A DNA stretch of 62,974 nucleotides, filler included. It is 14 parts of 14 records of this genome, joined end to end, with 100 filler letters (N's around TTAATTAATTAA, not from the genome) between each part and the next. Parts side by side here need not be neighbours in the genome. Positions count along the whole stretch, not along the records: positions 20,865 to 23,873 come from SRR11831580_79; 13 more parts are not named here. The stretch is one strand, 5' to 3'. Position numbers and translations under genes: made by a program. Below the pieces are notes generated by a model that was given only the letters and a program-made list of their open reading frames with translations, did no database searches and had not been told where the DNA came from. Below, one piece after another: positions 4,218 to 40,022 of this stretch. The stretch's first letter is position 1, and every line of letters begins with the position of its first letter.

Positions 4218-4252
<35 letters not shown>

Positions 4253-5444
4253 CGTCGATGCGTTGTCGTTACAGTAGTTCAGATTAGTACGAGAGGAACA
4301 TCTGGACGGCATGATGGGTATTTGCATTTGGTCGAACGACCAATGATGCGAAGCTTCTTGCCTTTTGATTATGCTTGAACGCCTCTAAAGCAGAAGCAAA
4401 TCTGGAGCGACGATAAGTGCTTCCCCAACGTCAGAGGATGACAATAGGACATGGCCGCAAGGTTGTGCTCCGAGCATCATACCACAGTATCGCCCGCGGC
4501 CGCAGAACAGGTGGCTGCGGGTTTCTGTGGATTGTAAACGAAAGCGTGGGGAAGAGAAATCTCTTGTATACGACTTGATTCGGACTGGGTATTGTACGGG
4601 GTAGAGAGGCCTAGTGCCTCGATCCTCTGAGATTCAGCCCGTGTTCGACGATTTGTCTCTTTTTTCTTTGATTCTTCATTTTCTATATCCACACATCATC
4701 ATGCATGATCAGATAAATCTCCATTCAGTAGACAGAAAGTAACAAAAAAAGATAGGTTCAACCACGCCCAAGTCCGCCCAGGTCAAAAAAATGGCCCATC
4801 CCAGGGTCGCGGGGTCGCTTCCTGCTGCATATCCCAGTACTTATATATGGTCCCAACTAGAAGGAGCTAGAGAGTTACGACGCGAGTACCTTCAAGAACG
4901 CGGGCCTGGATATAGAGCATTGTGCGGCATTGTAGAGCTTCAAGAACGGGTTGGGACCGTGTGATGCGATCAGCCTGGACATAGTTTTTGTGCGGCATGG
5001 TACGGGTTTGCCGCATACACATTGACCAGAATGCGTATGTAAGCGCTGCAGCGTCATAGTTGGCTCGTTTTGTGCACCGACCCGCTGACCCAATCCCGTT
5101 CCCTTTCATGCACAAAAACGTGCACGCTCACATGGATGCACGCACGTTGTATAGATAGAGCGTGCCCTGCATGGGTGGTGGTTGTTTTCTGAACCTGGTT
5201 GTATACAGCGTCCGCGCTCATTCATTCAGCCATGCATATATACATGCAGCACTCACACAAACTATTATAGGGATTCAGCATACCGCGACACACCCGCACC
5301 TGCACCGCTCGTATACACAAACACACGCACACACGCACACACATNNNNNNNNNNNNNNNNNNNNNNNNNNNNNNNNNNNNNNNNNNNNTTAATTAATTAA
5401 NNNNNNNNNNNNNNNNNNNNNNNNNNNNNNNNNNNNNNNNNNNN

Positions 5445-5862
5445 ATCGGAACTGCCTTTTGTGTTCCACGCGCACGTGCCTTACAACTGGGACGCAGACG
5501 AGGATCAGCTCAGTGTGCGCATGTCAACGTACTGGACGAACTTTGCCCACAACGGTACGAACTGGGATGAATCATGTGTGTTGTAGGTAGTTGGCTGCGA
5601 ATGTATGCATGTGTGAGATTGTTTGTTTTGTTGTTGTGAAGTGTCCACGATGGTTCGTATGACAGTTGACGGTGCCGATCTTACTGTTGTTTGTTCCTTA
5701 TTAGGTGATCCCAACATCGGACAGCCCGTCGACACGCAGTGGACTGCCCTAAATAGCAACCCGAATGCGACCCTGCTGTTCCAGACTGGCTCACTGGTTG
5801 TGGACACTGACTACCGCACTCAGTACTGTGATTTCTGGGACACGGTCGGTTACACTTATTAA
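5445..5862 (+). CDS. C-terminus of a type-B carboxylesterase/cholinesterase-family protein (5'-partial; intron 5555-5704)
   Basis: ELPFVF...MSTYWTNFAHNG|DPN...W...CDFWD motif series. Confidence 0.85.
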
Positions 5863-6372
5863 GCCCATACGATGTGAGGAAAGAAGAGAGTGACAGCATA
5901 TGTGTGTGTTTAGTTTGCGTCTGCACACATGCCTGTATACGTGGCGTGGTCAATATATTACTAGTCATCTCAGAAACGTCGTTCTCTGTCTCAGCCGTTC
6001 AGCGGATTGGCACGAGGTTGTTGCCTTACGCTATCAGCGACAGATGCAATGCATCAACTCCTCAAGTCAACAACCACAACAACCACAACATCCATCATCG
6101 CGCGCAACAACCACAACAGCAATTTGACGAGCTCCATCACGTGCGCATATCCTATCCATCACCGTTCACAGGCCAACTGCGCGCTACGGCTGACATCGCG
6201 GCCTGTCACACATCCTATGACGCACACGACCCACCACACCATAGGATAAATGACAACGATTGCTCCTCATCATAAATAAGCAAGTCTCGGGTAAAACAGA
6301 GCATTGCGAGACCTCCACTCTCTTAGAAGAGCAGCACAGAACGACAGCCATCACCGAAAGCACCAAATCAAA

Positions 6373-8103
6373 TCAATAGGTAGTGGCGTATCGGCCAAAA
6401 CACATTCCATTGTATGAATTATCCCCTGTCAGACATTTTCGCTGCACAATTGTGTGATCCGCTACGAGCTGCGTCCATGCCTACAAACATGGAACGTGAG
6501 CACACACCACACACACATTTCAGAAGAGTGAAACTGGGAGTTTCAGAACCATTTGGTGCCTCTCTATTCCCATTCATTGTGTACGTTCACATCAAAACAC
6601 ACGCACAGGCGAATGTCGCGTATCAACCGTATAACAAACAGCGTACCGCATGTGGGTCATTGCAGTATACCGTGGTACACGCCGTGTCGTCCATCACCAG
6701 TGTGTGCGAGAGCGGGTTCGCTAGCACCGCCATGTTCCGCAGATCAGCTAATAGAACAGTTCAGAAACACGAACTAAGAGACAGTGTTTAACATGATCGC
6801 TGTGCCAACCGCAGAAATAACTCGCACACACATACACACGACACACCACGCTAACGAAGAGATTCAATCAGCACACACGAACATGTGCACACAGAGACCA
6901 TGCATCGGACTAACAAACAACATCGGCACCAACTCAAAAGAAGCAAACACCACGCACCGAGGGGCACATCGCCTTCATGACCGCCATCAATGTGGATCAC
7001 GTCACAGCGAACGTCAGGATGGTTCTACAAACAACGAGCACAGCGTCATTAGACCCTGCCAGCCAATGCCAGTAAACATGACGCACACACGGATAACAGG
7101 AGAAGCGCACAATACACCAACTCAGGATGCGCCATAAAACACACGTTACCTTAATGAACTCAGGTACAGTTTGGCGCGAATCGCCGCATGTAATGACGAA
7201 TCGGTCACCATAACGTTGCCTCATGTAGTCGATCGCCAGCTGGGAGCACGGGTTGCCGCAGAAATCGAACGAGTACAGACGCGCATCGGGGTTGTTTTCC
7301 AGCCATACGATAGTGGAGTGGCCCACATTGAAACCTGACAAAACCACATGTGAGCTGCATCGTTACACTTCCCTGCCTCGCAACAGCACCGGAGAGATCG
7401 ATCACAGGTACGCAAACAGATACTAAGCTTCAACCACAACCAAAACCCACAGAATGTTAATACGATACAGTACACAGCCGTACCGATCTCGCAAACCGTA
7501 TCGACCATCGCCGTGTTCGAGGCAAGTCCCCGCAGTGCACGAATCTACACACAGAGTGATACGACACATACACACACGTATACTAGTTGAGAATCTGCAC
7601 ATGAAGACACAACAACAAATCAGACCAACCACTCACATATCAGGCATACAGACAACAATGGATCACCGAGATTCACACGGATGAGTGTACCTTCCACGGG
7701 CTCTGCGCAATGTGTCCTTCAATAATGTGAAACTGCGGGTCTTTGGCCTTCTCTGACAGCGCACACGCTCGCACCACCTTATCGAGATGTGACAACTATA
7801 ACAACACGCAGTGCACAGATACACACACGCACGCACGTACACACACGATACATTGTACACGAGGGGTGAGACAATAGGAGCATGAATATAAAGCAAACAC
7901 AGAACGCGACACACACATCAAGGTATACAAAGGCTAAACGGAAACCTCAACAGCATGAACGTACAGCTACGCTGTCTTCGTTTGTATAGTTCCAGGACGC
8001 GGGGAATGGTGCATCTAGCACGTCATACACTCAGCACACGGAAAAAACAGCAGATACAAAGCTTACCGTGCCTCAAAACGCACACAAGCCATCTCATAGG
8101 AAG
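6373..8103 (-). CDS. Class I SAM-dependent methyltransferase (Methyltransf_24-like), multi-intron, 5'-partial
   Basis: Spliced exons give VCEIG|FNVGHS, LYSFD, GDSRQTVP, CDVIHIDGGH, DLRNM..LVMDD, ending GRYATTY*. Confidence 0.78.
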
Positions 8104-8203
8104 NNNNNNNNNNNNNNNNNNNNNNNNNNNNNNNNNNNNNNNNNNNNTTAATTAATTAANNNNNNNNNNNNNNNNNNNNNNNNNNNNNNNNNNNNNNNNN
8201 NNN

Positions 8204-8668
8204 CGTTTACGGCCTGAATAACTGCCGTCGTTTAATATGTAATTCTTTATTTAACGCCTGATAAAACGGATTATCGCCGCGATAATTAAACAGGGTTTCA
8301 TTTTCCCCCAGGTGCTGATGAATAATGTCGTGCCACTGTAGCCAGGCGATAAGGTGAAAATTCACAGCGGTCATTTGCAAGGTTGGGGACAGCCAACGCC
8401 GACAACGACTCATCTCTATATGAAGATGTTGACCAACCGTAATACCTTGATCGTCAAACTGAACCTTATCACCATGCCGGAACAGATCATCAAAGTGAGT
8501 GAGTGCCAACCGACAACTGTTTGGCGCATTGTCGTACTCTTCACAAAGCAGCGTCAGCAACTGCTGGCGAGCCGGGAGTGCGATATTTACCGCTCTGGCA
8601 AAGACCTGTTCAACCTGTCCTTGCCCCCGCTGCGCCAGAAAATCCGCATCCGCAGTTAGCGCCCACAC
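8204..8668 (-). CDS. yahE: DUF2877 protein YahE, 3'-partial
   Basis: MWALTADADFLAQRGQ N-terminus, downstream of yahD; apparent 1-nt homopolymer loss near 8224. Confidence 0.85.
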
Positions 8669-8707
8669 ACACCGTCTTTCTGGTGTGTTGATAGCAAGCC
8701 TCCCGGT

Positions 8708-9313
8708 TTATGCACCTGCGGCAATCAGTAACTGCGCAATCTCTTCAAAGCCCCGTTCCCGCGCCAGTTCCAGTGGCGTTTTGCCATATTTATCGGTCAG
8801 ATGCGGGCTGGCACCGTGTTCCAGCAATAACTGCACAATCGCCTGCTGTTTAATACCACCATCATTAAGCACAATCGCTTCCAGTAGCGGCGTCCAGCCT
8901 ACATGGTTGGTCTGGTTAACGTTAATCTCCGTATGCGCCAAAAGCTCTTTTACAATACTTAAATGGCCTTTTTCACAGGCAGGCGTCAGGCCGACACCGC
9001 CAAAACGGGTTACGCAATTAAGATCGGGTTTAGCCGGTAAAATAATTCGTAGTAGCGTTAAATCATCGTTCAGACAGCTAATTAAAAAAGGATTTAAACA
9101 GGTATGATCTTGCTTATTAATATCCGCTCCGGCATCAATTAATGCCTGAACGCAAGCATATTGCTGATATAAACTTGCCAGCGTAATTGCCGTTTTCCCC
9201 TGACGATCGCAGGTATTAATATCGACACCCAGCGCAAGGCAGGTTTTTACTTTATCGATATCACCCTGTTGTGCAGCCAATAAATAGTCGGCAGGTAGAT
9301 TTTTTATACTCAT
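8708..9313 (-). CDS. yahD: Ankyrin-repeat protein YahD
   Basis: 201 aa with ankyrin repeats; yah gene order. Confidence 0.92.
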   Translation of the reverse strand: MSIKNLPADYLLAAQQGDIDKVKTCLALGVDINTCDRQGKTAITLASLYQQYACVQALIDAGADINKQDHTCLNPFLISCLNDDLTLLRIILPAKPDLNCVTRFGGVGLTPACEKGHLSIVKELLAHTEINVNQTNHVGWTPLLEAIVLNDGGIKQQAIVQLLLEHGASPHLTDKYGKTPLELARERGFEEIAQLLIAAGA

Positions 9314-9570
9314 TCACATTCCCCTGGTTTTTGTGGCTGTTTTCGATGAATTGAGAATAGCAACGATAATCTGATAAAAGAACCCGCTTAAATTTAATTC
9401 GCCGTATCTCGCCTTTTTGTTGAATAATATTCAACAATCTTTTCGCAGTGTGCGGTAGTGCAATATTTGTTTCTTTGACCCGATACCCTTTCACTCAATC
9501 AGGTTTTATTTCTCTATAGTCTGCACATGTAAGAGTAGCTTTCGTCCATGTCTAACCAGAGGGGAACAAG

Positions 9571-10068
9571 ATGAACGGACTCACGGCAACGGGTGTCACC
9601 GTCGGTATTTGTGCAGGGCTTTGGCAGTTAGTGTCTTCACATGTCGGGCTCTCTCAAGGATGGGAATTATTAGGAACCATTGGCTTCGTCGCCTTTTGCA
9701 GTTTTTATGCCGCAGGCGGCGGTAAATCGGGGTTTATCAGAAGTCTGGCGGTTAATTATTCCGGGATGGTGTGGGCGTTTTTCGCCGCGCTGACTGCTGG
9801 TTGGCTGGCCTCTGTAAGTGGACTGTCCGCGTTCTGGGCGAGCGTAATTACTACCGTACCCTTCTCGGCGGTAGTGGTCTGGCAAGGGCGTTTCTGGTTA
9901 CTGTCCTTTATTCCCGGTGGCTTTCTCGGCATGACGCTGTTTTTTGCCAGCGGGATGAACTGGACGGTGACGTTACTGGGTTTTCTGGCGGGTAACTGCG
10001 TGGGGGTAATTTCAGAATATGGTGGACAAAAATTAAGCGAAGCGACGACTAAACGCGACGGGTATTAA
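9571..10068 (+). CDS. yahC: Inner membrane protein YahC (DUF1097)
   Basis: 165 aa hydrophobic ORF; synteny. Confidence 0.9.
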   Translation: MNGLTATGVTVGICAGLWQLVSSHVGLSQGWELLGTIGFVAFCSFYAAGGGKSGFIRSLAVNYSGMVWAFFAALTAGWLASVSGLSAFWASVITTVPFSAVVVWQGRFWLLSFIPGGFLGMTLFFASGMNWTVTLLGFLAGNCVGVISEYGGQKLSEATTKRDGY

Positions 10069-10159
10069 AAGTTATTCAAAAATGATTATCTATCTTTAAC
10101 CGATACCTCTACAGTCATAGCTGGAGAAATTCATAGTAGATAATGGCGAGAATGGTTTA

Positions 10160-11091
10160 ATGAACTCAATTTTTACCGAAGAGAATCTGTTGGCATTTAC
10201 TACCGCTGCGCGTTTTGGCAGCTTCAGTAAAGCCGCAGAAGAGTTGGGTTTAACCACTTCCGCCATTAGCTACACCATTAAGCGTATGGAGACGGGGCTG
10301 GATGTGGTGCTGTTCACTCGCAGTACCCGCAGCATTGAGTTAACGGAGTCCGGGCGTTATTTTTTCCGCAAAGCTACCGACCTGCTGAATGATTTTTATG
10401 CCATCAAACGCAGAATCGATACTATTTCGCAGGGCATAGAAGCGCGTGTGCGCATTTGTATTAATCAGCTGCTTTATACGCCCAAACACACCGCACGCTT
10501 GTTACAGGTGCTGAAAAAGCAGTTTCCTACCTGCCAGATTACCGTCACCACCGAAGTGTATAACGGCGTCTGGGATGCGATTATTAATAATCAGGCCAAT
10601 ATCGCCATCGGCGCACCCGATACACTACTGGACGGCGGCGGTATTGATTACACTGAAATTGGCGCGATTCGCTGGGCTTTTGCTATCGCCCCGGATCACC
10701 CGTTAGCCTTTGTGCCGGAACCCATCGCCGAAAGCCAACTGCGTCTCTACCCTAATATTATGGTGGAGGACACCGCGCATACGATTAATAAAAAAGTGGG
10801 CTGGTTGCTGCACGGGCAGGAGTCAATTCTGGTGCCAGATTTCAACACCAAATGTCAGTGCCAGATTTTAGGTGAAGGAATTGGTTTTTGCCGGATTACA
10901 TGGTCCGTGAGGCGATGACGCAATCCCTGCTGGTTACCCGACAAATCCATAATCCGCGCCAGGATTCGCGCATGTTACTGGCGACTCAGCATTCTGCTAC
11001 GGGTCAGGTGACGCAGTGGATTAAAAAACAATTTGCGCCAAATGGCATATTAACGGGGATCTATCAGGATTTACTGCATCGGGAGAATTAA
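10160..11091 (+). CDS. yahB: LysR-family regulator YahB (split by a 1-nt homopolymer frameshift near 10885-10889)
   Basis: LysR HTH; adding one T to GGTTTTTG joins both ORFs as IGFLPDYMVRE. Confidence 0.88.
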
Positions 11092-11132
11092 TCGCTGCCA
11101 ACCTCCCGATGCGCTGTGAATAGCGGTTTACA

Positions 11133-11599
11133 TCAACCACCTGCTTTCATTACCCATTCAGAGATAAATTTATTACCCGGTACTGGCGGAGAGTACAAAT
11201 AGCCCTGCAAAAAGTGAACGCCTTTACCGATCATTAAATCCGCCTGCTCCTGGGTTTCTACCCCTTCCGCCACGATACTCAGACCAGGCTTACGCGCTAG
11301 TTCGACAATATTGTCCACAATATGACCGGAGATTTCGTCGACACTCGCCATTTGCACAAATGACTTATCGATCTTAATAAAATCGACCGGGAACGCCTGC
11401 AAGTAACGATAGGTCGCATAACCCGTACCAAAGTCATCCAGCGCAAAGGTAATGTTGTGCTGATGAAGGCTGTCAAATATCGCTCTGGCTTCTGGCGTTA
11501 CCGGAATAGGGTTACGTTCCGTTAGCTCGAGAACCAGCTTGATTTTATCGTTACCTAATTTATTAACCAGGTTCAGACACTCTTTTTCAAATCCCGCTG
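11133..11599 (-). CDS. pdeL: EAL c-di-GMP phosphodiesterase PdeL (YahA), C-terminal part
   Basis: DDFGTG, IKIDKSFV, AEGVET, QGYLYS motifs. Confidence 0.9.
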
Positions 11600-11699: not shown

Positions 11700-14600
11700 G
11701 GGGGTGGTTTGCATGTCGTCCAGCCCAGGAGGGGCGCGGTTAGACGTAAGCGATGTCAGAGAAATCATCGAGGTCGGGGATGCTCTACACAAGGCACCAT
11801 GTAGGTGAGGAAAAAAGAATCCGACAAGAAAACAGAACACATTGTTACGAGATGCGAGCGATGAATCAAGTTTACCACACGGAGTAGCGGTTCACAAGCT
11901 TTTAGCTGCGGTACCTTCGCTTGGGCACAGGTGAGTGCATCCGTGTCACCGCGGCTGAGTTGGGTTTACTAACACGGCGGAACGGGGAGGCTGCACGGAA
12001 TGACGAGCCATCGCTTGGCCTATGCGCGTGGAAGCACACAATGAGTGAAGGTGAACAGAGGAAAAAAACTGGATTCTTGAGTACTTGAAAGTAGCACTAC
12101 CAAACAGCATGTGCCACAAACAACACGAGCACAACTGGTATTTAAAACGTACACGAAGTTTTCCTGCGGGCCGCCGTCCTGTGCAAGGCCCACGCCAGCG
12201 CCCACCAACTCACGTTGATCTGCCGCGTAGGCTCGGTCCCCTGGTTTGGTGGACGTAGAGGGGTTTACATGGGAACGAGGGGTGTCGGAGGCGGTGATGG
12301 GCTGTCGTTTGTGCGATGCAAACCTACACGCTCGGATGTCAGAAAGCAACAGAAAGATGGGAAAGGGAGAAGAAGGAACAAATAAAGTTGAGTCGTCATT
12401 ACGAAGATGTATGCAACGAGAAAGAAGCAATATTGGAGGCACATGGTACCGTCGTGGTTTGTGCAGGAAGGCACTGCACTGTGTGCACTGTTTCTGATAC
12501 TTGCTGCATTCCGAGCAGTAGACGCTGGCCGGATTGTGTGAGTTGTCCTCACGCCAGCATCGGTCACAATCCTCCTGCGTACACACATGAGCCGTGATCC
12601 AGTGAACAGTGAATAAAATCAGACTGCACTCCGTACATATGTTGCTTCCAAAGGAACCATGTACTTCGTCACAACATACCGTCACCACGTGTCGTGTCCC
12701 TGAGGCTGATTCTGTGGTGTCCCAGCCTGCTCGAGCGTCCTTTCGTACCATACTTTGTGTGACACGTTGAACTACACACACAGCAACAACATCAAGCCCA
12801 CTGAGTGAGACGGCACAGAAAATACTTGATCATCTGGTAGCAAAAAGCCGTGCTGCTCAACACACATAATAGAACTATAACACATGCAACAACGCACCGG
12901 CAGATCGCAGTGTTCCCATGCTGTCGGAGGCTTTAGTGAGCTGCTTAACACGTTCACTGTGAGCACATCTGGCGCACACATATTCGTTGTCGTTCGTATC
13001 ACCGAGAAGCGACGCCAGGGAGACAAGAGGTTGAGAGGAGCGTTTGTTACAGAGACCGCAGCGCTCGGGAATCTACACAGAGACATCACTCTGAGTTAAT
13101 TGGTGCAGGAGACGTACAAACGTCATACATAGTTTTACAACACCATGAATATACGACTGCGAAGTAGTAACAGTGGTTGATAAGATCATAGCTGGAGGCG
13201 AGTACATACCGACACGGATGGTGTGTTCAGTTCATCATCGTCTTCTTCTTCGTTGAAATCTTCATTGGCTGACAGTGTCAACTCAGCAGAGTGCATAGCT
13301 GCATATGCCGCCCGCTTGAATCGATAGCGCATCACGCACACCACCAAGATGAATCCGAGCACGGTCAATATCAGTACGGGCAAGCCGACCGCGAGCCAGT
13401 AGTTCTACACAGTGTGAAGAAACGCAATTGTTAGACAGTCATTAAGCATCTCTTTTACCAACAGGGATCAGCCAACACACACACACACACAAACAAACAT
13501 AAACACACACACATACACAAATGGTTGGCCAATACCACCGTATGAACGTCACATGGAGAACGTACTGTCTCGAAACGGTCAAACACTTCCGCATCCACAG
13601 TCGTAACAGCGCTCACAAACTGCCCTGCGCTGCGTGCCACAGCTTTCACCACCGTCGTCGAGTTGAGCACAATAGGCCCCACATATCGACAGGGTAACGC
13701 AGTGGTGCAGGGCGCTGAGAGGGGCAGACTGGTGGTCGACGCTGGGAACAGAGGTAGATGGGATGTGCCCAGTGTGTAGAGAATAGTGTCACCGGCGCTG
13801 CTGCTCTGTAGTGTGACGGTGGTACGGCCCACGTCGTAGGTGGTGGTGATAGTGGGTGCGGTAGCTCGCTACAATAACGTGAGTTAGGGAGAAATGATGC
13901 GGGGAGGCATAGCAGCATAGCACAGAGCAACGCAGCTTGTTCTGAAGGTGAGACAGGAAGGAGAGACTGCGCGACGTACCGGTTGTATAACGAATCGCAT
14001 AATTTGAACAGAGCTGGGGACATGACCCGTTTCCACAGCCCGCACATAGACTGTAACATCTGACAGGCCGAATGATGACAGCGGTATTGTGGGGCTTGTC
14101 ACCGTTACGTAATCTGCACATTGTCCATGAATATACAAGCTGCGCACAACGCGCGTTGCCATTCATTCTGATCAACTACATGAATAACAACAACGCGTAC
14201 CTGAATCCTGGACCACTGTGTTGTTGGGTTTGTATGCAACCTGAATGCGTGAGTTCGCTGTCCCTGTTAGGTGCAGCGGTATGTGGGAGTCACGGCCCGC
14301 GAGATAAAAGGAACCGCTCACAGAAATGAATTGCTGTTGCTGTGATCCATCTACCACCACCAACGCAAAAGCGTGAGCGAATAAAATGCATCTGATCACC
14401 TGCAGCTACGAGCGATAGGTACGCTGGAAAACATGTACTTCTGCTACAGACTACAGACGTACCACCTCGCGAAGCGAAGGCAGCTATGTTGATTACGACA
14501 GTGGACACCGCAGGCAGGGCAACATTGTACACGGCTGTCGTCTCCGGGCCCGCGAAGGAACCGGCCTTGAAGCAGCGCACTACACAGCAATACGATAAGA

Positions 14601-17600
14601 GCGTGATAATGCAAAAAAAGATGTTCTGATATACGCTCCGAGAAAACCGGATATTACCCTACGTCAACCACTGCCCGAGCCATAATTCAGCACAACATAT
14701 GGGTTTGAGAAGGCACCGCTTTACACGAGTGTCAAGTTTGTAACAACGTATAGACACATACCTCTGAGGACGGTTGTAGTGAGCAGCACAATATTGCCAC
14801 CCGCCACAGCAGTTGAGTATTGTGTGACGTTGCTGTTGTCTGTCGTGTAGCGCATGGTGATGTTCGGGTACAAATCAATGGGTGCAACGCGCACAGTCAA
14901 CGGAGACGCATATCTGCGCAGATACGAAGTGAGTTATTACGAGGGATTCGTCATCAAAAGGTCATGTTTTGCTATTTACCCTTCCCCGCGCAGTTTTCAC
15001 GACAATTACAGAATGAAGCAAGATGCACTGTAAACAAGTCTATATAATATGTATGCACATACGATTGATTTCTCGGTGGGCTCATGGTGACGCCTGCAAG
15101 CGTAACTCGCACAGAGTAGTATCGCTGAGCCTCGGATGAGGGCGGTCTGTCTGCACCAGTAGCTATCGCACGAACTACACTCGTGAACATAGAGAGGGAA
15201 AATTAGGACAGCGACACGAAAAAAGTACAGGCAAACAGGGACACGCGCACTAGAAAACGATTCGATAAACTCCATACAAACGAATGACCTTGACTCGTAC
15301 CAAGGAACGAGCTACTCGTGGCGTTTAATGTCACTGGCGATGTGTAAACTGTGCCTTGCATTGGGTCAGAGCCATCAGTGGTGTATCTGAGACATCAAAG
15401 TAGTCGTAAGCTCCCTCGTTGCAACTTGGGCAAACAATTTACCAAGCCACTCATAGCAACACATTCAGGACCAACCTCAAACACTCTCACGGGAGACAAC
15501 CATACCGAATAACAACGGCACCACTGAGCAGGTCTGCGGAAGACACGCTCACGTTGAACGTGACAGAATCCGCATAAATACCGTCCACAGGATACACAAC
15601 AGGTGTACCCACTCGCACGGGGGAGCTGTACAGAAGACAGCGACCATCCGGTGCGCGAGACAGTCTACTCACACCACGAAAGAATGAGCACACGATTCGT
15701 ATAAAGAGAGAGAGAGAGAGTCAAACCATAACCTGTACAACACATTGCATACAAATTACACAGTACGTATCGTACCCGGGCAGGCATCCGCATGATGAAT
15801 ATCGTGTGCGCGGTGGTGTGCTGACTGTGCTGTTGGGAGGACATGAGGCGCATGCCACAGCGGACGCTGACTGCGTGTAGGACCGATCATCCATGATAGC
15901 CGCAGGGGCTTGTGCCGTGGGTTGTCCACTTGCCTAATGCACATATCATAGTTAGAATCAAGGGTACTCTATACAATGGATCAACTACCAGAACCCGGTA
16001 CTCGTGGGTATTACGCTGATCAAAGCAGTATCGGATACGTAAACCAGAACCGGTATAGACCAATACCGGTGCGTATCCTTAGGTACGCACCTGTGTCAGG
16101 GAGTAATTTGACACGGCCAGCGCTCCAAGCTCCGTCACACTAAGAGATCCATTGGCAACGGGTACATTGCCTACATAGACACTGATGCGCGACACGCCCC
16201 GAGATGACAGAAACTGCGCGTTGTAGTTGAAGATTGCAATGGATGAGATGTGTGTGGAGCGCCCTAGATCTAGTGTGACGCGAAAACGACCACTCTGTGC
16301 ACTAGCAAACTGGAGTGCCGACTATCGGTCAAGGAGATAACACTACGAACACGCAATTCACTGACTTGCATTCACAGTCGGGACAAACAATAACCGAGTG
16401 ACGATAACGAGCAATATGGGACACATGAATAGAAACGCGGAATGCTGAAAGGATATGATTAGGGTTGTTGCTGGTGGTGTCGCCATCAAACAATCGCTCA
16501 CAGGAAGTTTGCGCGGTGCTGCTCCCATCCGAAGTACAGTTCACAATGGGCACCCTACAGCACACACAAACATTAACAGGCGCGAATCATCTATCGCAAT
16601 AACACACATAAACTTGGACGGAGCGAATAGAGCGCCATCTGCGCGTAGGTAATGGTGTGCGTACAGTGACAGCAGGTTGTCATACACTTGCACCTCCAGA
16701 AGTCCTGTGGGCTGACTCGCACACGAGAAACAGTCGTTCGGGTGGACTAGCAGCGTGAGATAGCGCCCCTGCCACACCTACGTTCGCAAGACCACGTTCA
16801 GAGTTAGCGCGCCATCATCTAACACGACCAAAGTAGAAATTTCGTGTGACAGTAAAATATAGAGCTGGGTTGATATCATATCGCGTAAGAGCAAAAGAAT
16901 AGAACCATTGACCGACTGTGACAGATGAGCAGGGTAAGTTGCGTACCTGAAACTGGTTCCAGCTACATTCACACGTGCAGTCATCGGTTCTCTTCATGCC
17001 TGCTGGGCAAGGGGCAACGAACAGGCCTCGGCCCGCACAAAACTCTGCACGAACGATATGATGAGAGCGATGCAACTCACTGGTTGTAACTATTCAAGTA
17101 TCCATCTGAAACTCACTCATCTGAAACTAACTCATTTCTGCGGTTCTTCGTACCTGTTGAGGACGTCGCTGCAATACACGTGCAATTTGTTGACGCTCGC
17201 TGAAATCCCGGTGCACATTGGGGTACGCAGGTTCCTAGATGCACCAAAATGACTTGTGAGTTAGTTTAACGGTCCTGTGGTTCCGGGAACTTGTGACGAA
17301 GCGGACAGGGAACCCAAAAGATCATACCGTTGCACATCTCATCGAGTACGCCGTCGCACGCGTTCTGCACTGTATAACTTGTCTGATAGTAACCAAGCAA
17401 GCTGCTTGTAATGGCGGTGGGGTACATACGCACTTCATCCACGGACGCGACCAGAAACGAGTTGTAATTGGTATCCTGCAGCAAATTATTCATAAAGGCC
17501 AGAGCACGCATGAAGCCATTGAAACATATATCGTGCACCGAGATTATCCCGCCATTGTATGGAGTGTACGGAAACGTACGTTTCGGCCACCCACGTAGAC

Positions 17601-18145
17601 CAATTCTAGCGATCCCGCGTATGTGATAGTGCCCATATACACAGCTTGACCTGTGACACAGACACGTGCGCGGGGTGAGTCCGCAAGAAAAGAAACCACA
17701 CACGCAAAGATTACAGTCAACCCAAGCCCATATGTCCCAGAGATCACACACGCAAAAGCGTACCTGTCAGCTGACCATCCACCCAGAACTGCGTGACTCC
17801 GCTAGTCACCGTCACAGCAATGTGGTGCCACAGTGTGAGGTCCAGTGAAACGGGACTAGAGTACACGGTCCCTATGGAGCCTCGTGTGAATTGAACCGTG
17901 AGTGTGGTGTACGTGGTGACGATGCCCAGCGACCAGAATGGATGCCTGTGCACAGAAATCAAGGTGAGTTCACACTGTATCACTGAACAAGCACTTCTCC
18001 GTTGTGTTAATATCAGGCACCTATGATGCACGTACACGCCGATGATGGTAGCGTTTTGCGAAGTTGGACCTGCTCTGACCCATGCCTCCGCGGCAAAGTT
18101 CGACTGAGGCTGCAGCAGACGGCTGTCGGTTACGTTGGCAGAAAA
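11700..18145 (-). CDS. Large multi-exon single-pass membrane protein: LamG-like, Cys-rich, discoidin-like and Fn3-associated ectodomain, TM, cytoplasmic zinc fingers; partial at both ends
   Basis: Exons encode WHHIAVT..FWVDG/DEVRMY, LFDGD..LDLG..IFNYN..RG, RYTTDGSDP..YTSPV, TM LAVGLPVLILTVLGFILVVCVM-RYRFKR, CGLC..CARC and a B-box. Phases checked from TM to B-box; some ectodomain junctions (13400-14800) unresolved. Confidence 0.65.
16315..16456 (-). other. U12-type AT-AC intron, 142 nt
   Basis: Canonical 5' ATATCCTTT, branch TCCTTGAC (16335-16328), 3' CAC 14 nt after the branch A; restores frame NNPN-L-QFASAQ. Confidence 0.92.
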
Positions 18146-18245: not shown

Positions 18246-18351
18246 TGCATCGAGGCGGCAACTGAGTGAACTCCCATGAGCATAGATAACTATGTGAATG
18301 GGATGAGCGAAGGCAGTCAACGAAGAGGCAGCGTGAAGGATAAAGTGTATA
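18246..18351 (+). repeat. ERIC/IRU element (5'-truncated) overlapping the nudB start
   Basis: Resembles the ERIC consensus (GGCGGCAA.TGAGTGAA..CCC..GAGC...GGG.TGAGCGAA.GCAG.CAACG...GTATA). Confidence 0.78.
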
Positions 18352-18785
18352 AGCGTCCCGTTTCGATCTTAGTGGTCATCTACGCACAAGATACGAAACG
18401 GGTGCTGATGTTGCAGCGGCGTGACGATCCCGATTTCTGGCAGTCGGTAACCGGCAGCGTGGAAGAGGGTGAAACCGCGCCGCAAGCTGCCATGCGCGAA
18501 GTAAAGGAAGAGGTCACCATTGATGTTGTCGCTGAACAACTGACCTTAATTGACTGTCAGCGCACGGTAGAGTTTGAAATTTTTTCACATTTACGTCATC
18601 GCTATGCGCCGGGCGTGACGCGTAATACGGAATCATGGTTCTGTCTTGCGCTTCCGCACGAGCGGCAGATCGTTTTCACTGAACATCTGGCTTACAAGTG
18701 GCTTGATGCGCCTGCTGCGGCGGCGCTCACTAAGTCCTGGAGCAACCGGCAGGCGATTGAACAGTTTGTAATTAACGCTGCCTGA
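18333..18785 (+). CDS. nudB: Dihydroneopterin triphosphate diphosphatase
   Basis: Nudix box [23 protein letters not shown] start gives 150 aa. Confidence 0.95.
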
Positions 18786-18813
18786 ACAGGCAGGGCTATC
18801 TGGAGATATTTTT

Positions 18814-19554
18814 ATGGCAGGTCATAGTAAATGGGCCAACACCAGACATCGTAAAGCTGCGCAGGATGCTAAGCGCGGTAAAATCTTCACTAAAATCATT
18901 CGTGAGCTGGTAACCGCGGCTAAGCTGGGCGGTGGCGATCCGGACGCTAACCCGCGTCTGCGTGCGGCGGTGGATAAAGCACTGTCTAACAACATGACCC
19001 GTGACACACTGAACCGCGCAATTGCACGTGGTGTGGGCGGTGATGATGATGCAAACATGGAAACCATCATCTACGAAGGTTACGGTCCTGGCGGCACGGC
19101 AATCATGATTGAATGTCTGTCTGACAACCGCAACCGTACCGTTGCTGAAGTGCGTCATGCATTTAGCAAATGTGGCGGTAACCTCGGTACTGATGGTTCC
19201 GTTGCCTATCTGTTCAGCAAAAAAGGCGTGATCTCCTTCGAGAAAGGCGATGAAGACACCATCATGGAAGCAGCACTGGAAGCAGGTGCTGAAGACGTTG
19301 TGACCTATGATGACGGCGCGATTGATGTCTACACTGCATGGGAAGAAATGGGTAAAGTGCGCGACGCTCTGGAAGCGGCAGGTCTGAAAGCAGACAGCGC
19401 GGAAGTTTCCATGATCCCGTCTACCAAAGCTGATATGGATGCAGAAACCGCACCGAAACTGATGCGTCTGATCGATATGCTGGAAGATTGCGACGACGTG
19501 CAGGAAGTTTACCATAACGGTGAAATCTCTGATGAGGTCGCAGCGACTCTCTGA
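18814..19554 (+). CDS. yebC: YebC/PmpR-family protein
   Basis: [17 protein letters not shown]. Confidence 0.97.
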
Positions 19555-19588
19555 TGAGGCCTGCTAAACAGCAAAACGGAGACGCGTG

Positions 19589-20110
19589 ATGGCTATTATT
19601 CTCGGCATTGATCCGGGTTCGCGCGTGACCGGCTACGGCGTCATCCGCCAGGTAGGTAGGCAACTGTCCTACCTGGGTAGCGGATGCATCCGCACCAAAG
19701 TGGATGATTTACCGTCTCGTCTGAAACTCATCTATGCGGGCGTGACGGAAATCATCACCCAGTTCCAGCCTGATTATTTCGCCATTGAACAAGTCTTTAT
19801 GGCAAAGAACGCTGACTCAGCCCTGAAACTGGGCCAGGCGCGCGGCGTGGCGATTGTGGCGGCGGTGAATCAGGAGTTGCCAGTATTTGAATACGCGGCA
19901 CGTCAGGTAAAGCAAACGGTGGTAGGTATTGGCAGTGCCGAAAAAAGCCAGGTGCAGCATATGGTCCGCACCTTGCTGAAACTGCCCGCTAATCCACAGG
20001 CGGATGCCGCCGATGCGCTGGCGATTGCTATCACCCACTGCCACGTTAGTCAGAATGCGATGCAGATGAGCGAATCGCGGCTGAACCTGGCGAGAGGGCG
20101 ACTGCGTTAA
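19589..20110 (+). CDS. ruvC: Holliday junction resolvase
   Basis: [23 protein letters not shown]. Confidence 0.98.
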
Positions 20111-20111
20111 G

Positions 20112-20714
20112 TTATACCGCCTCGGTCAGTTCCGGCTGAGGCGTTTCCACTCCCTCCGCATGAATCAACACCAAACCCGGATGATGCCACAAACTGGCTG
20201 GCGTGACGGTTTTACGCTCCCACGGAATAGAACCCAGGAACCAGAATTTCCAGAAAGTGAGTTTTGCATTCGGATTGCTATTTAACAATTCTCCAAACGT
20301 CTCTATTTCACCCACCGGAATACATAGCGCTTCTTTATAAATATCAAAAACAAATTTTGAACAGAACTGGCGCGAAGATTCGTATTTAAAACCGGTGTGG
20401 TAAAGTTTGCGTAGCCGGGAGGGAACCTGTTCAACAATTCGTTGTTTTTGTCGTTCTGTCAGCCCAGCGTCTAATCGCTTTATAGCATAGCGTTGATTAG
20501 ACGAACGTTTAATAAAACGAGATAGCGTGGTGATGGTTGAAAGGGGAACCCGGCTTTCTGCAACCAGGAAGTCTTCACCGTTATGACCGATAATGATCCC
20601 GACGTGATTACTCCAGCAATTTGATGCAGCTGATATTTGACCAAATAAGGCAGCACCTATACATGTAAAGACGATATCTCCAATTTCATATTCAGCAGGG
20701 TAATTAATATTCAC
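20112..20714 (-). CDS. yebB: Permuted papain-like NlpC/P60 protein YebB
   Basis: SNHVGII, QFCSKFV; convergent with ruvC. Confidence 0.9.
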
Positions 20715-20864
20715 GTTGTCATTCCATTGAAATAGATACAAATATACGTAATAGCATAAAAATTNNNNNNNNNNNNNNNNNNNNNNNNNNNNNNNNNNNN
20801 NNNNNNNNTTAATTAATTAANNNNNNNNNNNNNNNNNNNNNNNNNNNNNNNNNNNNNNNNNNNN

Positions 20865-21350
20865 CTGATGCGCATCCACGAAGTTCACCAGCGAGATGTT
20901 GTAGCGGGGGGCAGCCTCGCCGTCCGGTTGTGCGCGGGTCATACGCGTGAGTGCGTCGTTGCAGCGGTGCATGAAGGCGTATGGCGGGTCTTCCCATGAG
21001 TACGCAAACAGCCGAACGCCCAGGTACAGATAGGTCAGACCCGGATCACCGAACAAGATGCGTTGAACGGTGGTGATACTGAAGCGGCCATCTCGTTCTG
21101 TGATATTCTGTTGCATGAGTCCATTGCGCTGCAACGCTTCCAGTGACGACTCAATTTGCTCCACTGACTCGATGGATAGCCCATGCTGAGAATCGTCTGA
21201 GTGTGGCAGCAAAGGAATATGACGGAACAGAGGATAGTGTTTCCGCTGAACAGATTCAAAAGTAGGAGACGACGGTCGATGAAATGGTGCAGGGGTCTCA
21301 TTCAGCTGCTGCCATAACCGCTTTTTCTTAATGCGGGCGGATGACATCAT
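20865..21350 (-). CDS. FTO: FTO-like AlkB-family RNA demethylase, N-terminal part (truncated by the contig end)
   Basis: KKKRLWQQL..PF.RP...F..HYP, RILFGDPGLTYLYLGVRLFAYSW and YNISLVNFVD align with recalled human FTO ([42 protein letters not shown]). Confidence 0.85.
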
Positions 21351-21938
21351 TCACGAGTAATTTTCCTCGATACGAAATGCTACACCGGAGAAGCAACCTG
21401 TAAAATTACGAGTCGCGCAAGGAACACGAAACGCCACCCCCCATGTTGGCTAGCATCGAAACGTCGAGCGATTTAGCACTGTCGTGTATCGATAGTTGAT
21501 GTACAGTGGGGAGCGACTTATAGGGACCAGGAACACGTGGCCCATAACGCATAGCGTTCCACAGCTGTGATACACATATATTCCCATGACTCGCCCGACA
21601 ACCATACATACTCCACGATGAATATACAGGCAGCAAATCCATAGGGAACGTCCCACACCCCTCCCATACAACAAACCAACAGGCTACTGCAACAACCCTA
21701 ACGCACAAAGAAGACAGGCCAGTGCTAGGGAACAGCGCCCCCATAATGTTACTGGACGCAACCTTCTCGAAGGCATCATCCACGTTCCGCTGCCAATATT
21801 CGCCACTCGTCCTTCTGGGAGTGCACAACGGGAAGATACCCAACGTACACTCACAACGCAACGCACAAGCTGCTTTCAGGAAACATATATCGAGAGCCAT
21901 GATATGTGCAACAGGGACATGGACTCGCACACAAGCCA

Positions 21939-23395
21939 TCACTCCTCTGCAGTAACAGCTGTGCGCTTTGCCGCACGCTCCGGCTCCTCCACCGACACCG
22001 CCTCCTTCTCCCTGCCACCACCATCAAGACCGGAATCACCACCACCACCATTGCCATCCTCAACAGTGGGTGCTGCACGAGCCACACGATCCTCCTTACT
22101 ATGGTTCACCGCCGTCCGTAGCGTCCGCACCGACTCACTGACAAACTCCTCTAGACCGGCACCCAACGCGTGCGGCCGTTGATCACCTTCGTCGCGTGCC
22201 CGTTTGCGCGCCATCTGCGCATCATAATAGCGCTGCCGATCCTCCGTCAACACAGGTTTCGATTCCTGGAACGCGCGCAGGAGAGCCGATACACGCTCGT
22301 CGGTTGGGGCCCAGCGTTGAAGTCCGGCGTCGTTTTGCAGGAAGAACACTGCTGTGTGAAAGGTCGCGGGCAGGTACCCATCGCCCGTGTTCCGGTGCTG
22401 GTCCCCGGTGCGGTATGCGTGATCGCTCTGCGGAACAACAAAGAAGCGGCGCAGGAACGCGGACTCACGCATGAGAGGCCACGCTGGTGTATCCGTCCAG
22501 CTGGGGATGAAAACGGCAAAGGACAGGGCCTGCTGACTTTCGGAAAGCAGCGTGATCATATGCTGTGCCATTCGCAGCATCACCGCCTCTACAAAGGGAG
22601 GGTTGACCTCGAAGGAGCCCGAGCAAGGCCGGAACCGGAAGAACGAGCCCAAGCTGCCGAACGGTGCGTCCGTGTCTGCGAACGCGCTGCAGAACGTGCC
22701 GTAGCAGCAGTTCAGCGGGGATGCGAAGCACTCGAGACGAACATGAAACTGAGCCGTAAGCTCCGCAAACACACGCGGGGGCAGGGCAGCCTGGTACCCC
22801 ACGCCACCCAGCGAGTCGTACCGTGCCAAGAGACAGAACAGCGCACTCGCAAACCCTTCTGTCGAGTGAGGCTGCACGCGGCGGTAGCAGACAAACAGTT
22901 TCTCGTGATGCTCGCGACGGATACTGTACTTGAGGTCACGGAATTCAACCTCGAAGCCCCGGTCTCCTACGTCCCGTAACGACACGGACGCGACGGAAGG
23001 GGAATCATCCACAGAGTTGCGATCACTCGCAAGGCGAACACAGGCATCGCTTAGTGTTTTTCACGATGTCCCCCCGCGTACTTGGGATGCATGCCTGCTT
23101 TGCTTAACTCAGCGAGGACCTCGTGAAATACAGGCCGCGATGGGATCAGCGGGTCACCAACCCCAGCCTCGAGCGACGCAAGATGCCATCGCTGAAAAGC
23201 TTGTGGAGGTTCGCGCCGCACTCCAGCCTCACGCACCGCTTCAGAAAACACTCTCCGCAGTTCCCGGACCGCTTTCGTTCGACGCACTTCCAAGTCCGGT
23301 GTACAAAGTGAGAATGACGCATCCGCAATTTGTGATGTTTTCGTCAGTTGCTCACGAAGATAGCTTACGGTGCGTAACCATATATTCTCAGTCAT
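21939..23395 (-). CDS. PCIF1: PCIF1/CAPAM-like cap-specific adenosine N6-methyltransferase; frameshift at homopolymers ~23057-23075
   Basis: EPPQAFQRW..DPLIPS, LLARYD, QAALP, ECFASPLN, FCSAFADTDAPFGSLGSFF, GSFEVNPPF (catalytic NPPF), LSFAVFIPSW, HAYRTGDQH, FFLQNDAG. Confidence 0.9.
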
Positions 23396-34032: not shown

Positions 34033-36269
34033 GATGAGGCCCTGGAGCAGTACAATGAGGACGTTGCTGTGATGGACCTGGTGTTGTTCGAGGACGCTAT
34101 GTACCACATCTGCCGTATCTCGCGCATCATCGGTACGTTGGTCCTTAACATGCATGATTCTGTTACCTGTTCCCAAAAGGTCGACTACGGTGATGTTTCG
34201 TTTGGACCGGATAGTTGACATGATTTGTGACACACAGAGAACCCGCGTGGCAATGCGTTGCTGGTGGGTGTGGGAGGCAGCGGTAAGCAGTCTCTGGCGC
34301 GCATTGCAGCGTTCATCAGTCAGTACACTGTGGTGCAGATTACGATCTCCAAGACGTACGGTGTGGCGGATCTCAAGGCGGACATCAACGCCATGTACCA
34401 GAAGGTACGACAAGAGTGTGTGTGGCGTGATCTTGTTGCGTTTGTTGCGATAGAGAGACTAATCCCAGTGTGGTGCTTGGCCCTGTGTCGGCGTTGTTCT
34501 TATGCGGTTGTGTGTGCTTCTGTTGGCGCATTCTAATACCGTTGTGTTTACACTTGTGTGTGTATCTTTTGTGTGATGTGCGTAGGCCGGTGTCAAGAAC
34601 ATGGGTCTGCTGTTCCTGCTGACAGACTCGCAAATCGTCGACGAGAAGTTCCTCGTGTACATCAACGACATGCTCAGTACGGGTTACCTGCCCGACATCT
34701 TCACGCAGGTGCGCTGGCTCCCCACTCTTTAGGAGCTTTGGCGGGTAGCTGACATGTTGCTTGCTCTTTTCTCGTGGTGCAGGAGGAGCGCGACAATATC
34801 ATCAACGCGCTGCGATCTGAAGTCAAGGCCACCGGTCTCGTGGACACTCCCGATACTGTGTGGGACTTCTTCATTGAGAAAGTTCGCCGAAACTTGCATG
34901 TCTGCCTGTGCTTCTCCCCCGTGGGTGATGCGTTCCGTGTGCGTGCGCGCAAGTTCCCTGCCCTCGTGAACTCCACGATGATTGACTGGTTCCATCCTTG
35001 GCCTCATCAGGCGCTCATCTCCGTGGCAACTCGGTTCTTGGCCGATGTCGAGTTTGCATCCGATGACGTACGTTCCTGTTTTTGTGTGTGTTGATGTTGG
35101 TAGTGTTGGTTGTTTTGGTGCGTGTGATAGGTAGTGCTGGGTTTCGTTGGATAATCTTTCGTGCTCGTTGGTCATTTTTGTAATATACACCCACACGCAG
35201 CACTCTGCTTCCCTCTTTCAACGCATACATACACCTTCTAACATGATTCCCCGTATAGGTCCGCGATAATGTGGTGGCCTTCATGGCCCATGCCCACGGC
35301 TCCGTTAAGAAAGTGTCAGAAGTGTACCTAGCCGCTGAGAAACGCGCCAACTACGTGACACCCAAGTCCTACCTCGAGTTGATTTCACTGTACAAGAGTA
35401 TGTTGTTGCAGAAGCGGCAGCAGAACCGAGAACAGATTGAGCGCTTGGAGAATGGTTTGGTGAAACTGCAGGTGCGTCGTTGTTGCTGAGTGCACACACA
35501 GCGTCGGTTGTGTCTATGCTACTGTGTCCATGCTGCACGTTTCGAGCCGTTGGTGTGGTGTTCCTGTATCATATCTTTGGTTTCTTTTCTTTGTGCCTTT
35601 CCCTGTGCGCTTGAATCTAAACCGGCTTTTCTTCCTGCCCTCGTGTGCACAGGCAACCACAGATGATGTGGAGAAGTTGAAAGACTCGCTCCGTATTCAG
35701 TCTTTGGAGGTGGACCGCAAGAAGGCCGCCGCAGACCAGCTGTTGGAGCGGGTAGGCAAGGAGACCGTCATTGTGCAGGTACGCGAATTGATGAAGGACA
35801 TGTATGTGTGCGTGCTTTTGTGTCAAAAGAGGGGGTGTTTCAGGGTCTCTGAGAAATGCTGCGCTGCATCTGACACTATACGTACTTGCTATGTGTGTCC
35901 GCGTGTGCGTGTGTCTCTGTGTAGGGCGAGCAAGCAAAGGCTGCGGCTGAAGAGGAGAAAACAGCTGCCCAAGCACGTGAGGTTGCTGCCAAACAGGCCG
36001 AATGTTCGAAGGATCTTGAGAAGGCCGAACCTGCTATCATTGCGGCGGAGAAAGCGCTCAACACCCTCAACAAGGCGAATTTGACCGAGTTGAAGTCGTT
36101 CGGTAAACCGGTACGTAGAGGTCTCGGTTCAGGAGATGTCCGAGCGCATGGATTGAATGTGGATTTCTCTCAGTGTGGACGGGTATCTGACATGTGTTTT
36201 GACAAAACTCCTACAGGCTCAGGAAATCGTGGATGTCGCAGCGGCTGTGATGTACCTGCTCTCCCCGAA
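34033..36269 (+). CDS. Axonemal dynein heavy chain, outer-arm (DNAH9/11/17-like); AAA4 and stalk fragment, 7 GT-AG introns
   Basis: [73 protein letters not shown]. Confidence 0.93.
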
Positions 36270-36369: not shown

Positions 36370-37595
36370 ACGGTTTGTTCGCCCATGGTATGGCTGATGT
36401 CAAAGCACTCCATCCGCTTCACTTCCGGCAATTTCAACACGCTGGCAAGCGCGGTCAGTCGCTGGTGAACGGTAGATTGCTGCGAAAGTTTGCTGGTTAA
36501 GGCCGTCGCCGCATTGGTGCGCGCGAGTTTCAGATAACGCGCCCTATCGCCGCGAGGTTTGGTTTGAACATTAATCTTGCGTCCCGCCAGTTCTGAAAGG
36601 GAATCGGCGAGCAGCGTTTTATCGCTAAGATTAAAATCGAGCAGGATCTCACCCGGTAAGGTGCGCATCTGGCTGCCTTGTAAATAGAACTGGCCTACGA
36701 AGGTTTCTACCACCTCGCTCAGTTCCGTACCGCCAGGCACTTTCGGGAAATAGCTGCGGCTGCCGAGCACTTTGCCCTGACGAATGAACAATACGTGGAC
36801 ACAAGCCATGCCCGCATCGAACGCCACACCAATAACGTCGAGGTCGTCGCCGGTATTGGAAACGAATTGTTTTTCGGTGACGCGTCGCACCGCCTGAATT
36901 TGGTCGCGAATACGTGCAGCTTCTTCAAACTCCAGATTCTGGCTGGCAGTTTCCATACGACTAATGAGTTGCGTAAGCACCTGATCATCTTTGCCAGACA
37001 AAAACAGGCGCACATACTCGACCTGCTGAGCGTATTCTTCTTCACTCACCAGTCCTTCAACGCACGGTCCCAGACAGCGCCCTATCTGGTATTGCAGACA
37101 CGGACGCGAGCGATTGCGATAAACACTATTTTCGCACTGGCGAATGGGGAAAATCTTTTGCAGTAGCGCCAGTGTTTCACGTACGGCATAGCCATTCGGG
37201 AACGGGCCGAAATATTCACCTTTGGCATGCTTCGCACCACGATGCATCGCCAGACGCGGGTGGGTATCACCACTCAGGAAGATAAAAGGATATGATTTAT
37301 CATCGCGTAGCAAAACGTTGTAACGCGGCTGATAGAGTTTGATGTAGTTGTGTTCCAGCAACAGCGCTTCGGTTTCTGTGTGAGTAACCGTTACATCAAT
37401 TTGCTGGATCTGGGCGACCAGCGCTTCGGTTTTGCGCGAAGCGAGGTTGCTACGGAAATAGCTGGAAAGCCGTTTTTTCAGGTCTTTCGCTTTGCCGACA
37501 TAGATAACCGTACCACCAGCATCGTGCATGCGATAAACGCCTGGCTGGCTGGTTACGGTTTTTAAAAACGCTTTTGCGTCAAACTGATCACTCAC
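36370..37595 (-). CDS. uvrC: Excinuclease ABC subunit C, 3'-partial
   Basis: [20 protein letters not shown] domain; ECFDISH. Confidence 0.97.
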
Positions 37596-38248
37596 TGACT
37601 TGATAATGTCTCCGCATTACACAGACCATGGCGAATTGCCAGGTGAGTCAGCTCAACATCGCCATGAATGTTTAGTTTACTGAACATACGATAGCGGTAG
37701 CTGTTCACCGTTTTCGGACTGAGATTGAGCTGTTCTGAGATCTCATTGACCTTCTGGCCCTTGGTGATCATCAGCATAATCTGCAATTCACGTTCAGACA
37801 AACTGGCAAATGGGCTTTCTGTTTTTTCTGGTTCGATCTGGCTTAACGCCATTTGTTGAGCGATGTCAGAAGCAATGTAACGCTGCCCTGAATAGACAGA
37901 ACGAATCGCACTCACGACTTCCTGCGGAGCCGCGCCTTTGCTGAGGTAGCCCGCAGCACCGGCCTGCATGACTTTCGCTGGTAAAGGGTTTTCTGTATGG
38001 ACGGTAAGCATGATGATTTTGACATCAGCTGTGGAACGCGCGATTTTACGCGTCGCCTCAAGACCGCCAATGCCCGGCATACTCATGTCCATTAGCACCA
38101 CGTCAACGGCATTTGTCCGGCACCACTTAACGGCGTCTTCACCGCACGATGCCTCACCGACGACTTTTATACCCTTTATATCTTCCAGAATGCGTCGTAT
38201 CCCTGCGCGCACCAGTTCGTGGTCATCAACAAGTAGAACGTTGATCAA
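37592..38248 (-). CDS. uvrY: Response regulator UvrY
   Basis: REC plus LuxR HTH, 218 aa, overlapping the uvrC start. Confidence 0.97.
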
Positions 38249-38543
38249 AGGAATATCTCCAGAAATAGGGATAACGCTACTGATAGTTAGTCATTCGTAT
38301 ATTAGCGGTTTTTATTGCAACTTTGAAACGTTAAAAATGGTGGGTATTCGATTTTTCTCTCGTTTTTGTCAATTCGATTGTCCACAGTTATGGTCACGCC
38401 CGTCACCAACGGCTTACCGGATCGTTTCACAGTAAGCCCTACGATGAAATGTGACAAAAATTGACTTTATTCAGCAAAAATGAAAATCAGCCCGCTGAAT
38501 ATGTAACATTAATTAACCCGAACAATACGGGCAAAAAACATTC

Positions 38544-38704
38544 ATGATAAAAATATTTATTGGTCATTATATTAACGTATTTTATAGCACTGCCGATATC
38601 ACGCTCAAAAAACAACCACTGCTATTTTTAGCAAAGCTTATGGTATACTCCGCCGCCTTAACATTTTTCACCGCAAATTTTCATTGCAACATGACGAGGA
38701 AAAT
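38544..38704 (+). CDS. yecU: Small protein YecU, 3'-partial
   Basis: MIKIFIGHYINV, divergent from uvrY (recalled K-12 annotation). Confidence 0.55.
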
Positions 38705-38804: not shown

Positions 38805-38828
38805 TGTATGCTATACGAAGTTATTACG
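38805..38828 (+). other. 454 Titanium paired-end (loxP-derived) linker remnant
   Basis: TGTATGCTATACGAAGTTATTACG fused to internal dfp sequence at the contig start. Confidence 0.9.
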
Positions 38829-39586: not shown

Positions 39587-40022
39587 GATTCTGGACCCGC
39601 GCGTTGGGAAGGAATTTCCGCTCCCGACTTATGCCACCTCTGGCTCTGCCGGACTTGACCTGCGTGCCTGTCTCAACGACGCCGTAGAACTGGCTCCGGG
39701 TGACACTACGCTGGTTCCGACCGGGCTGGCGATTCATATTGCCGATCCTTCACTGGCGGCAATGATGCTGCCGCGCTCCGGATTGGGACATAAGCACGGT
39801 ATCGTGCTTGGTAACCTGGTAGGATTGATCGATTCTGACTATCAGGGCCAGTTGATGATTTCCGTGTGGAACCGTGGTCAGGACAGCTTCACCATTCAAC
39901 CTGGCGAACGCATCGCCCAGATGATTTTTGTTCCGGTAGTACAGGCTGAATTTAATCTGGTGGAAGATTTCGACGCCACCGACCGCGGTGAAGGCGGCTT
40001 TGGTCACTCTGGTCGTCAGTAA
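39567..40022 (+). CDS. dut: dUTPase
   Basis: [31 protein letters not shown]. Confidence 0.98.

Follow-up and report, generated by a model that had tools for sequence, protein, structure and literature searches.

We found that a PCIF1-like methyltransferase gene and the beginning of an FTO-like dioxygenase gene are neighbours on the minus strand of one protist contig. The adjacency is real on the assembled contig, and it appears to be undescribed. Two independent genes have probably come to be neighbours by chance or in this lineage alone: among the relatives examined there is no support for a conserved, fused or transferred unit.

The window, by which we mean the whole stretch of DNA analysed, is 62,974 bases long and consists of 14 contigs of 2.2–10.5 kb each, split by 13 identical artificial spacers of 100 nt (N44-TTAATTAATTAA-N44). 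Eight of the 14 contigs match an Escherichia genome at 96–100% (positions 8204-11599, 18246-20764, 23974-33932, 36370-38704, 38805-49336, 49437-56645, 56746-58957 and 59058-62974). The contig carrying the two genes (20865-23873; 3,009 bp, GC 0.548, eukaryote-like; hereafter the target contig) is flanked on both sides by E. coli contigs. The linker at 20765-20864 joins it to the nudB-yebC-ruvC-yebB region, which matches at up to 100% and is present in all 5,426 complete E. coli genomes searched; the linker at 23874-23973 leads to a contig with the 3′ end of fumB, melB and melA. The target contig itself has no match in the same 5,426 genomes, and belongs to a set of six contigs without an E. coli match (1-2304, 2405-5344, 5445-8103, 11700-18145, 20865-23873 and 34033-36269). 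Eukaryotic features were seen on three of these six: a eukaryotic LSU rRNA represented by its 3′ half, which contains the tail of a group I intron and another large insertion; a dynein heavy chain, its AAA_8 and stalk domains divided among pieces that lie in more than one frame; and an RRM protein. The dispersal of the dynein pieces over different frames, with gaps of about 130–350 nt between them, indicates spliceosomal introns. Judged from these sequences, the source is a mixture of an intron-bearing eukaryote possessing a dynein heavy chain with E. coli contigs, artificially concatenated. Since linkers join protist and E. coli contigs in this stretch, a neighbourhood that extends over one of them has no meaning.

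The kinetoplastids, whose cap carries m6,6Am, were considered as the source and dropped. The dynein gene found on another of the non-E. coli contigs is in pieces, the insertions in the rDNA represent group I introns rather than a fragmented rRNA, and there is no trypanosomatid among the PCIF1 matches listed.

The PCIF1-like gene occupies two reading frames of the minus strand. The main frame (21939-23060) comprises 373 aa from stop to stop (23060-21942) and ends with a TGA at 21939-21941; an N-terminal frame of 114 aa (23395-23054, feature 23051-23395) opens with an ATG at 23395 and closes with a TAA at 23053-23051. The main frame matches the PCIF1_WW family with 198.9 bits (cut-off 31.1; E 6.4e-59) over positions 4-176 of the 176-position profile, the family domain corresponding to residues 54-219. 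Solved PCIF1 structures are matched with E-values of 2e-53 (6irx) and 2.4e-52 (6irv), and residues 40-264 align with the PCIF1 methyltransferase region (E 2e-53). The motifs ECFASPLN and NPPF, on which the sequence-only reading had based its assignment, are found in the minus-strand translation. NPPF, the catalytic motif of N6-adenine methyltransferases, aligns with the NPPF of 6irx, and its residues N153, P154 and P155 are invariant in an alignment of 27 PCIF1 sequences; the window protein retains all 30 of the 30 invariant columns of that alignment. A word-indexed search recovered 278 PCIF1 relatives, with PF12237 in each of the 120 listed. The best relatives among the matches listed have 45–49% identity, the best named one being that of the malawimonad Gefionella okellyi (45%).

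Full-length homologues align at their N-termini with the 114-aa open reading frame, and the alignment runs on into the 373-aa frame, so the two frames belong to one gene of about 480 codons. The only stretch in which both frames are open is the 7-nt overlap at 23054-23060, which partly covers a 5-base homopolymer run at 23057-23061. The break probably reflects a 1-nt indel, whether introduced by the assembly or genuinely present in the gene. As another cause of the frame change we considered a 32-nt GT...AG intron at 23081-23050. Its removal restores the frame but takes out about 10 residues relative to homologues, and it would be far shorter than the gaps of the dynein gene; the 1-nt indel is preferred.

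PCIF1/CAPAM is the cap-specific mRNA (2′-O-methyladenosine-N6-)-methyltransferase of vertebrates, and the N-terminal WW domain of the animal protein binds the phosphorylated C-terminal domain of RNA polymerase II. The window protein shares with vertebrate PCIF1/CAPAM (6irv, 6irx) the full-length PCIF1_WW domain and both motifs. It differs in its C-terminal tail, which is rich in Gly and Glu, in the frame broken at 23054-23060, and in the WW domain, for which neither frame gives a match at E<=1. Such an absence is usual for relatives of near length: of the 120 listed, 119 have no WW domain, while a manual count found one in 28 of the 67 longer relatives listed, and all the named proteins among those 28 come from animals. 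The upstream gene would encode a WW-less methyltransferase of the PCIF1/CAPAM family, about 480 aa long, whose NPPF motif is intact. This protein is predicted by homology to N6-methylate the cap-adjacent 2′-O-methyladenosine.

The FTO-like gene is truncated. Its first 162 codons lie at 20865-21350 on the minus strand, beginning with an ATG at 21350-21348, and the frame is still open where the contig ends. The fragment matches FTO_NTD with 56.3 bits (cut-off 27; E 3.9e-15), covering only positions 25-89 of the 275-position profile; among its 13 PDB matches 12 are FTO, with a best E-value of 2e-7. The motifs RILFGDPGLTYLYL and YNISLVNF, named in the sequence-only reading as FTO-specific, are present in the minus-strand translation. 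A word-based search for longer relatives of the fragment returned nothing at E<=0.001; an exhaustive HMMER pass over 1.84 billion representatives returned 80 relatives, none better than E 4e-10. The domain scan of these relatives covered 35 of the 80, mostly the longer ones: 34 contain FTO_NTD and 29 also contain FTO_CTD, in 28 of them above the curated cut-off. The remaining protein is a false positive with leucine-rich repeats. The fragment has at most 30–45% identity to any known sequence over the matched stretch, and relatives with a named source come from Prymnesium parvum and Aphanomyces astaci. Both open reading frames pass their family HMMs, a check proposed together with the assignments, and the Pfam and PDB matches agree with the identities first put forward, namely two genes of a protist belonging to the PCIF1 and FTO families.

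The downstream gene would represent the N-terminus of an FTO-family Fe(II)/2-oxoglutarate dioxygenase, and homology suggests that its product is an N-methyl nucleic-acid demethylase, with no particular substrate preference implied. In common with vertebrate FTO it has the N-terminal part of FTO_NTD and, in a pairwise alignment, the equivalents of human R96, Y106, Y108 and L109 (here R97, Y107, Y109 and L110). In contrast to vertebrate FTO, the window gene supplies 162 residues only, and the equivalent of human I85 is an arginine (R86). The contig ends at residue 162, just after YNISLVNF, and the HxD...H motif and the 2-oxoglutarate-binding residues fall beyond its end.

These features bear on whether the two genes, though real neighbours, may not be a writer and an eraser of one mark, either because the FTO-like protein has another substrate or because one of the copies is a pseudogene. 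Candidate substrates of this kind are internal m6A, snRNA, tRNA m1A and 3-methyl-T/U. Several substrates have been reported for FTO. Human I85 is one of two FTO residues described in the passages cited here from a preprint (10.1101/2025.05.09.653100) as contacting the 2′-O-methyl of m6Am, and its equivalent here is arginine; our human numbering was mapped by hand from the pairwise alignment and agrees with the I85 and L109 of those passages. The residues given there as contacts of the m7G cap, Y220, H232 and W278, have their equivalents beyond the contig end together with the catalytic motifs and the C-terminal domain (FTO_CTD). The broken frame of the PCIF1-like gene also fits a pseudogene. 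Against this, conservation extends to the base-pocket residues and the equivalent of L109, and the reading frame breaks in or next to a homopolymer run, as is typical of sequencing error. We consider it improbable that the neighbours are not a writer–eraser pair for one of these reasons.

Read along the minus strand, the target contig has the PCIF1-like gene first, then the spacer and, downstream, the FTO-like gene. The sequence-only reading had described two co-oriented minus-strand genes about 590 nt apart; the spacer between the TGA of the PCIF1-like frame (21939-21941) and the FTO-like ATG (21350-21348) measures 588 nt (21351-21938) and contains no N. Neither a tRNA nor an Rfam family was found in the spacer, and searches for both over the whole target contig were likewise negative. 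A 177-aa open reading frame at 21406-21939 has no Pfam match and a flat GC content over its codon positions (0.52/0.51/0.53), and is probably non-coding. Both genes have the codon-position GC of coding sequence, with GC3 of 0.66 and 0.61. Since the spacer frame has no such structure and both genes do, the two genes are direct neighbours on the contig. The region upstream of the PCIF1-like gene (23396-23873) is A/C-rich and has no long coding-like open reading frame. A TGA lies directly before the FTO-like ATG, as first noted in favour of two genes, and we find it to be in frame (21353-21351). The stop codon of the PCIF1-like gene, the 588-nt spacer and this in-frame TGA support two separate genes and not a fusion.

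An assembly artefact would also place unrelated genes side by side. The assembly is a low-quality mixture of protist and E. coli contigs stitched together with linkers, and the target contig is short and has an apparent homopolymer frameshift, as a chimeric contig might. However, it contains no Ns and no abrupt break in composition between the genes, and neither of its halves matches E. coli. The codon-position GC is similar in both genes, and their GC3 values resemble those of the dynein exons found elsewhere among the contigs without an E. coli match (0.58–0.75). A chimera is very unlikely in our judgement. The practical lesson of this material is that even features inside one contig derive here from short, error-prone contigs.

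The same neighbourhood was searched for elsewhere. A metagenome scan with the 27-sequence PCIF1 alignment gave 363 confirmed relatives, and the survey used their 80 best loci, 564 kb in all; 38 of them have at least 1.5 kb downstream and 51 at least 2.5 kb on one side. No FTO was found at any of the 80 loci by tblastn (E<=1e-3) with 79 FTO-family proteins and the window fragment as queries; many of these loci are short and come from organisms that may have no FTO at all. As a positive control, all 79 FTO queries find the window contig under the same settings and database size. FTO was similarly absent from all 10 PCIF1 loci on giant-virus or other viral contigs, and the FTO alignment gave 29 pattern matches on viral contigs, none of which was confirmed. 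The contigs of prokaryote genomes yielded one pattern match for FTO and 58 for PCIF1, again with none confirmed, and neither family was found there. Prymnesium parvum, like the source of the target contig, is a protist with both families. Its genes are unlinked, unlike those of the window: the PCIF1 gene (AB1Y20_021713) is on a contig of 3,767,289 bp and the FTO gene (AB1Y20_006462) on another of 2,678,391 bp, their locus tags differing by more than 15,000. No PCIF1–FTO fusion occurs among the 120 near-length and 67 longer PCIF1 relatives listed, nor does PCIF1_WW occur in any of 34 FTO relatives searched for fusions. A comparison of the regions upstream of the two genes revealed only 12–15-mers in common, at the level expected by chance.

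The sequence-only reading had gone further and proposed a co-regulated or co-transferred module. A selected cassette for cap m6Am, co-regulated or jointly transferred in this lineage, would account for two genes of confirmed families standing on the same strand, adjacent and 588 nt apart, and for their relation in vertebrates, where according to the cited passages (including 10.1101/2025.05.09.653100) PCIF1 installs cap m6Am and FTO removes it. Among the papers that literature searches on PCIF1 and FTO turned up, no title or abstract deals with a genomic linkage of the two genes, in line with the sequence-only reading, which knew of no description of such a cluster. The comparative evidence runs against it, with FTO at none of the 80 metagenome and none of the 10 viral PCIF1 loci, the two genes apart in P. 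parvum, no fusion proteins among the relatives listed and no upstream motif above chance level. The named nearest relatives also differ, being a malawimonad for PCIF1 and a haptophyte and an oomycete for FTO, a weak argument given that most matches are unnamed. Absence of linkage in relatives had been set beforehand, together with uncorrelated expression, as a refutation of the module, and linkage was absent in every relative examined; all of these are distant (at best 45–49% identity for PCIF1 and 36–41% for FTO), so that the survey says little on close relatives. We regard such a cassette as unlikely, and it is quite unlikely that selection in this protist lineage maintains the two genes side by side and under common regulation, as a WW-less PCIF1 writer and an FTO eraser of cap m6Am.

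The reading that we prefer is that these are two separate, ordinary nuclear genes of an intron-bearing eukaryote, which happen to stand in tandem on a short contig of draft quality. Each gene would probably have its own promoter, and their adjacency would be lineage-specific or due to chance, as opposed to a conserved or transferred writer–eraser cassette. We estimate the chance of such an adjacency at about 2 in 10^4 for a pair named beforehand and about 10^4 genes; this pair was picked post hoc from a very large scan.

Two observations point away from the preferred reading. In vertebrates the two enzymes oppose each other on the same mark, and a tandem, co-oriented arrangement with a short spacer is the look expected of a co-regulated pair.

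For mammals, the debate over the reversibility of cap m6Am and the ancestral substrate of FTO continues. A selected pairing would make this protist a simple system in which to study both questions. Such a pair would then be the first case of an RNA-modification writer linked in the genome to its eraser, and reversible cap m6Am would predate animals. Both families are already known outside animals, PCIF1 from many protists and FTO from marine algae, the latter as reported by Robbens 2008 in the form in which it is cited in a passage of PMC2906751. The present data show that a protist outside the usually cited groups has both families, here as neighbours.

The window joins 14 unrelated contigs through 13 spacers of 100 nt (the first at 2305-2404, 5345-5444 and 8104-8203, followed by ten more). 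All 13 are identical (N44-TTAATTAATTAA-N44) and carry stop codons in all six frames. A feature that runs across one of them is artificial.

Eight of the 14 contigs, at 8204-11599, 18246-20764, 23974-33932, 36370-38704, 38805-49336, 49437-56645, 56746-58957 and 59058-62974, consist of Escherichia DNA and match both the Escherichia genome G001 and genomes of E. coli at 96-100% identity. Because these contigs are drawn from scattered positions of the bacterial chromosome, they are DNA of a contaminant or of a food bacterium, mixed with the contigs of the eukaryote. A short low-complexity stretch at 13455-13520, which lies in a contig that is not of E. coli origin, gives weak matches (86-89%) to a tandem-repeat array of G001; this similarity is probably compositional.

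A eukaryotic LSU rRNA gene is represented by its 3' half at 2634-4654, where model positions 2391-3399 are stretched across 2,021 nt. Ahead of it lies a group I intron (2405-2556) of which the contig end leaves the 3' part, and a second large insertion follows model position 2792. The nuclear rDNA thus contains at least two intron-like insertions. On the plus strand at 34231-36269, a gene for a dynein heavy chain is present in pieces (AAA_8 and the microtubule-binding stalk). The pieces are in differing frames and are separated by gaps of ∼130-350 nt, which indicates that the source organism has spliceosomal introns.

PCIF1-like proteins are also encoded on ten viral contigs (L081-L090), with 28-40% identity to the PCIF1-like protein of the window. 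Two of the ten are labelled GVMAG, and several span 89-270 kb. No FTO relative was found in the flanks examined around the PCIF1-like genes of any of the ten.

P0239, a protein of 958 aa from a public assembly, ranks among the closest PCIF1 relatives, at 49% identity. This single predicted protein comprises XRN_N (residues 3-214), PCIF1_WW (433-599) and XRN_M (701-764) domains. P0239 represents either a cap methyltransferase domain placed within a 5'-3' exoribonuclease or a merged gene model. In some other PCIF1 relatives, namely P0282, P0287 and P0289, one and the same protein bears additional methyltransferase domains of class I (PF13649, PF08241, PF05891).
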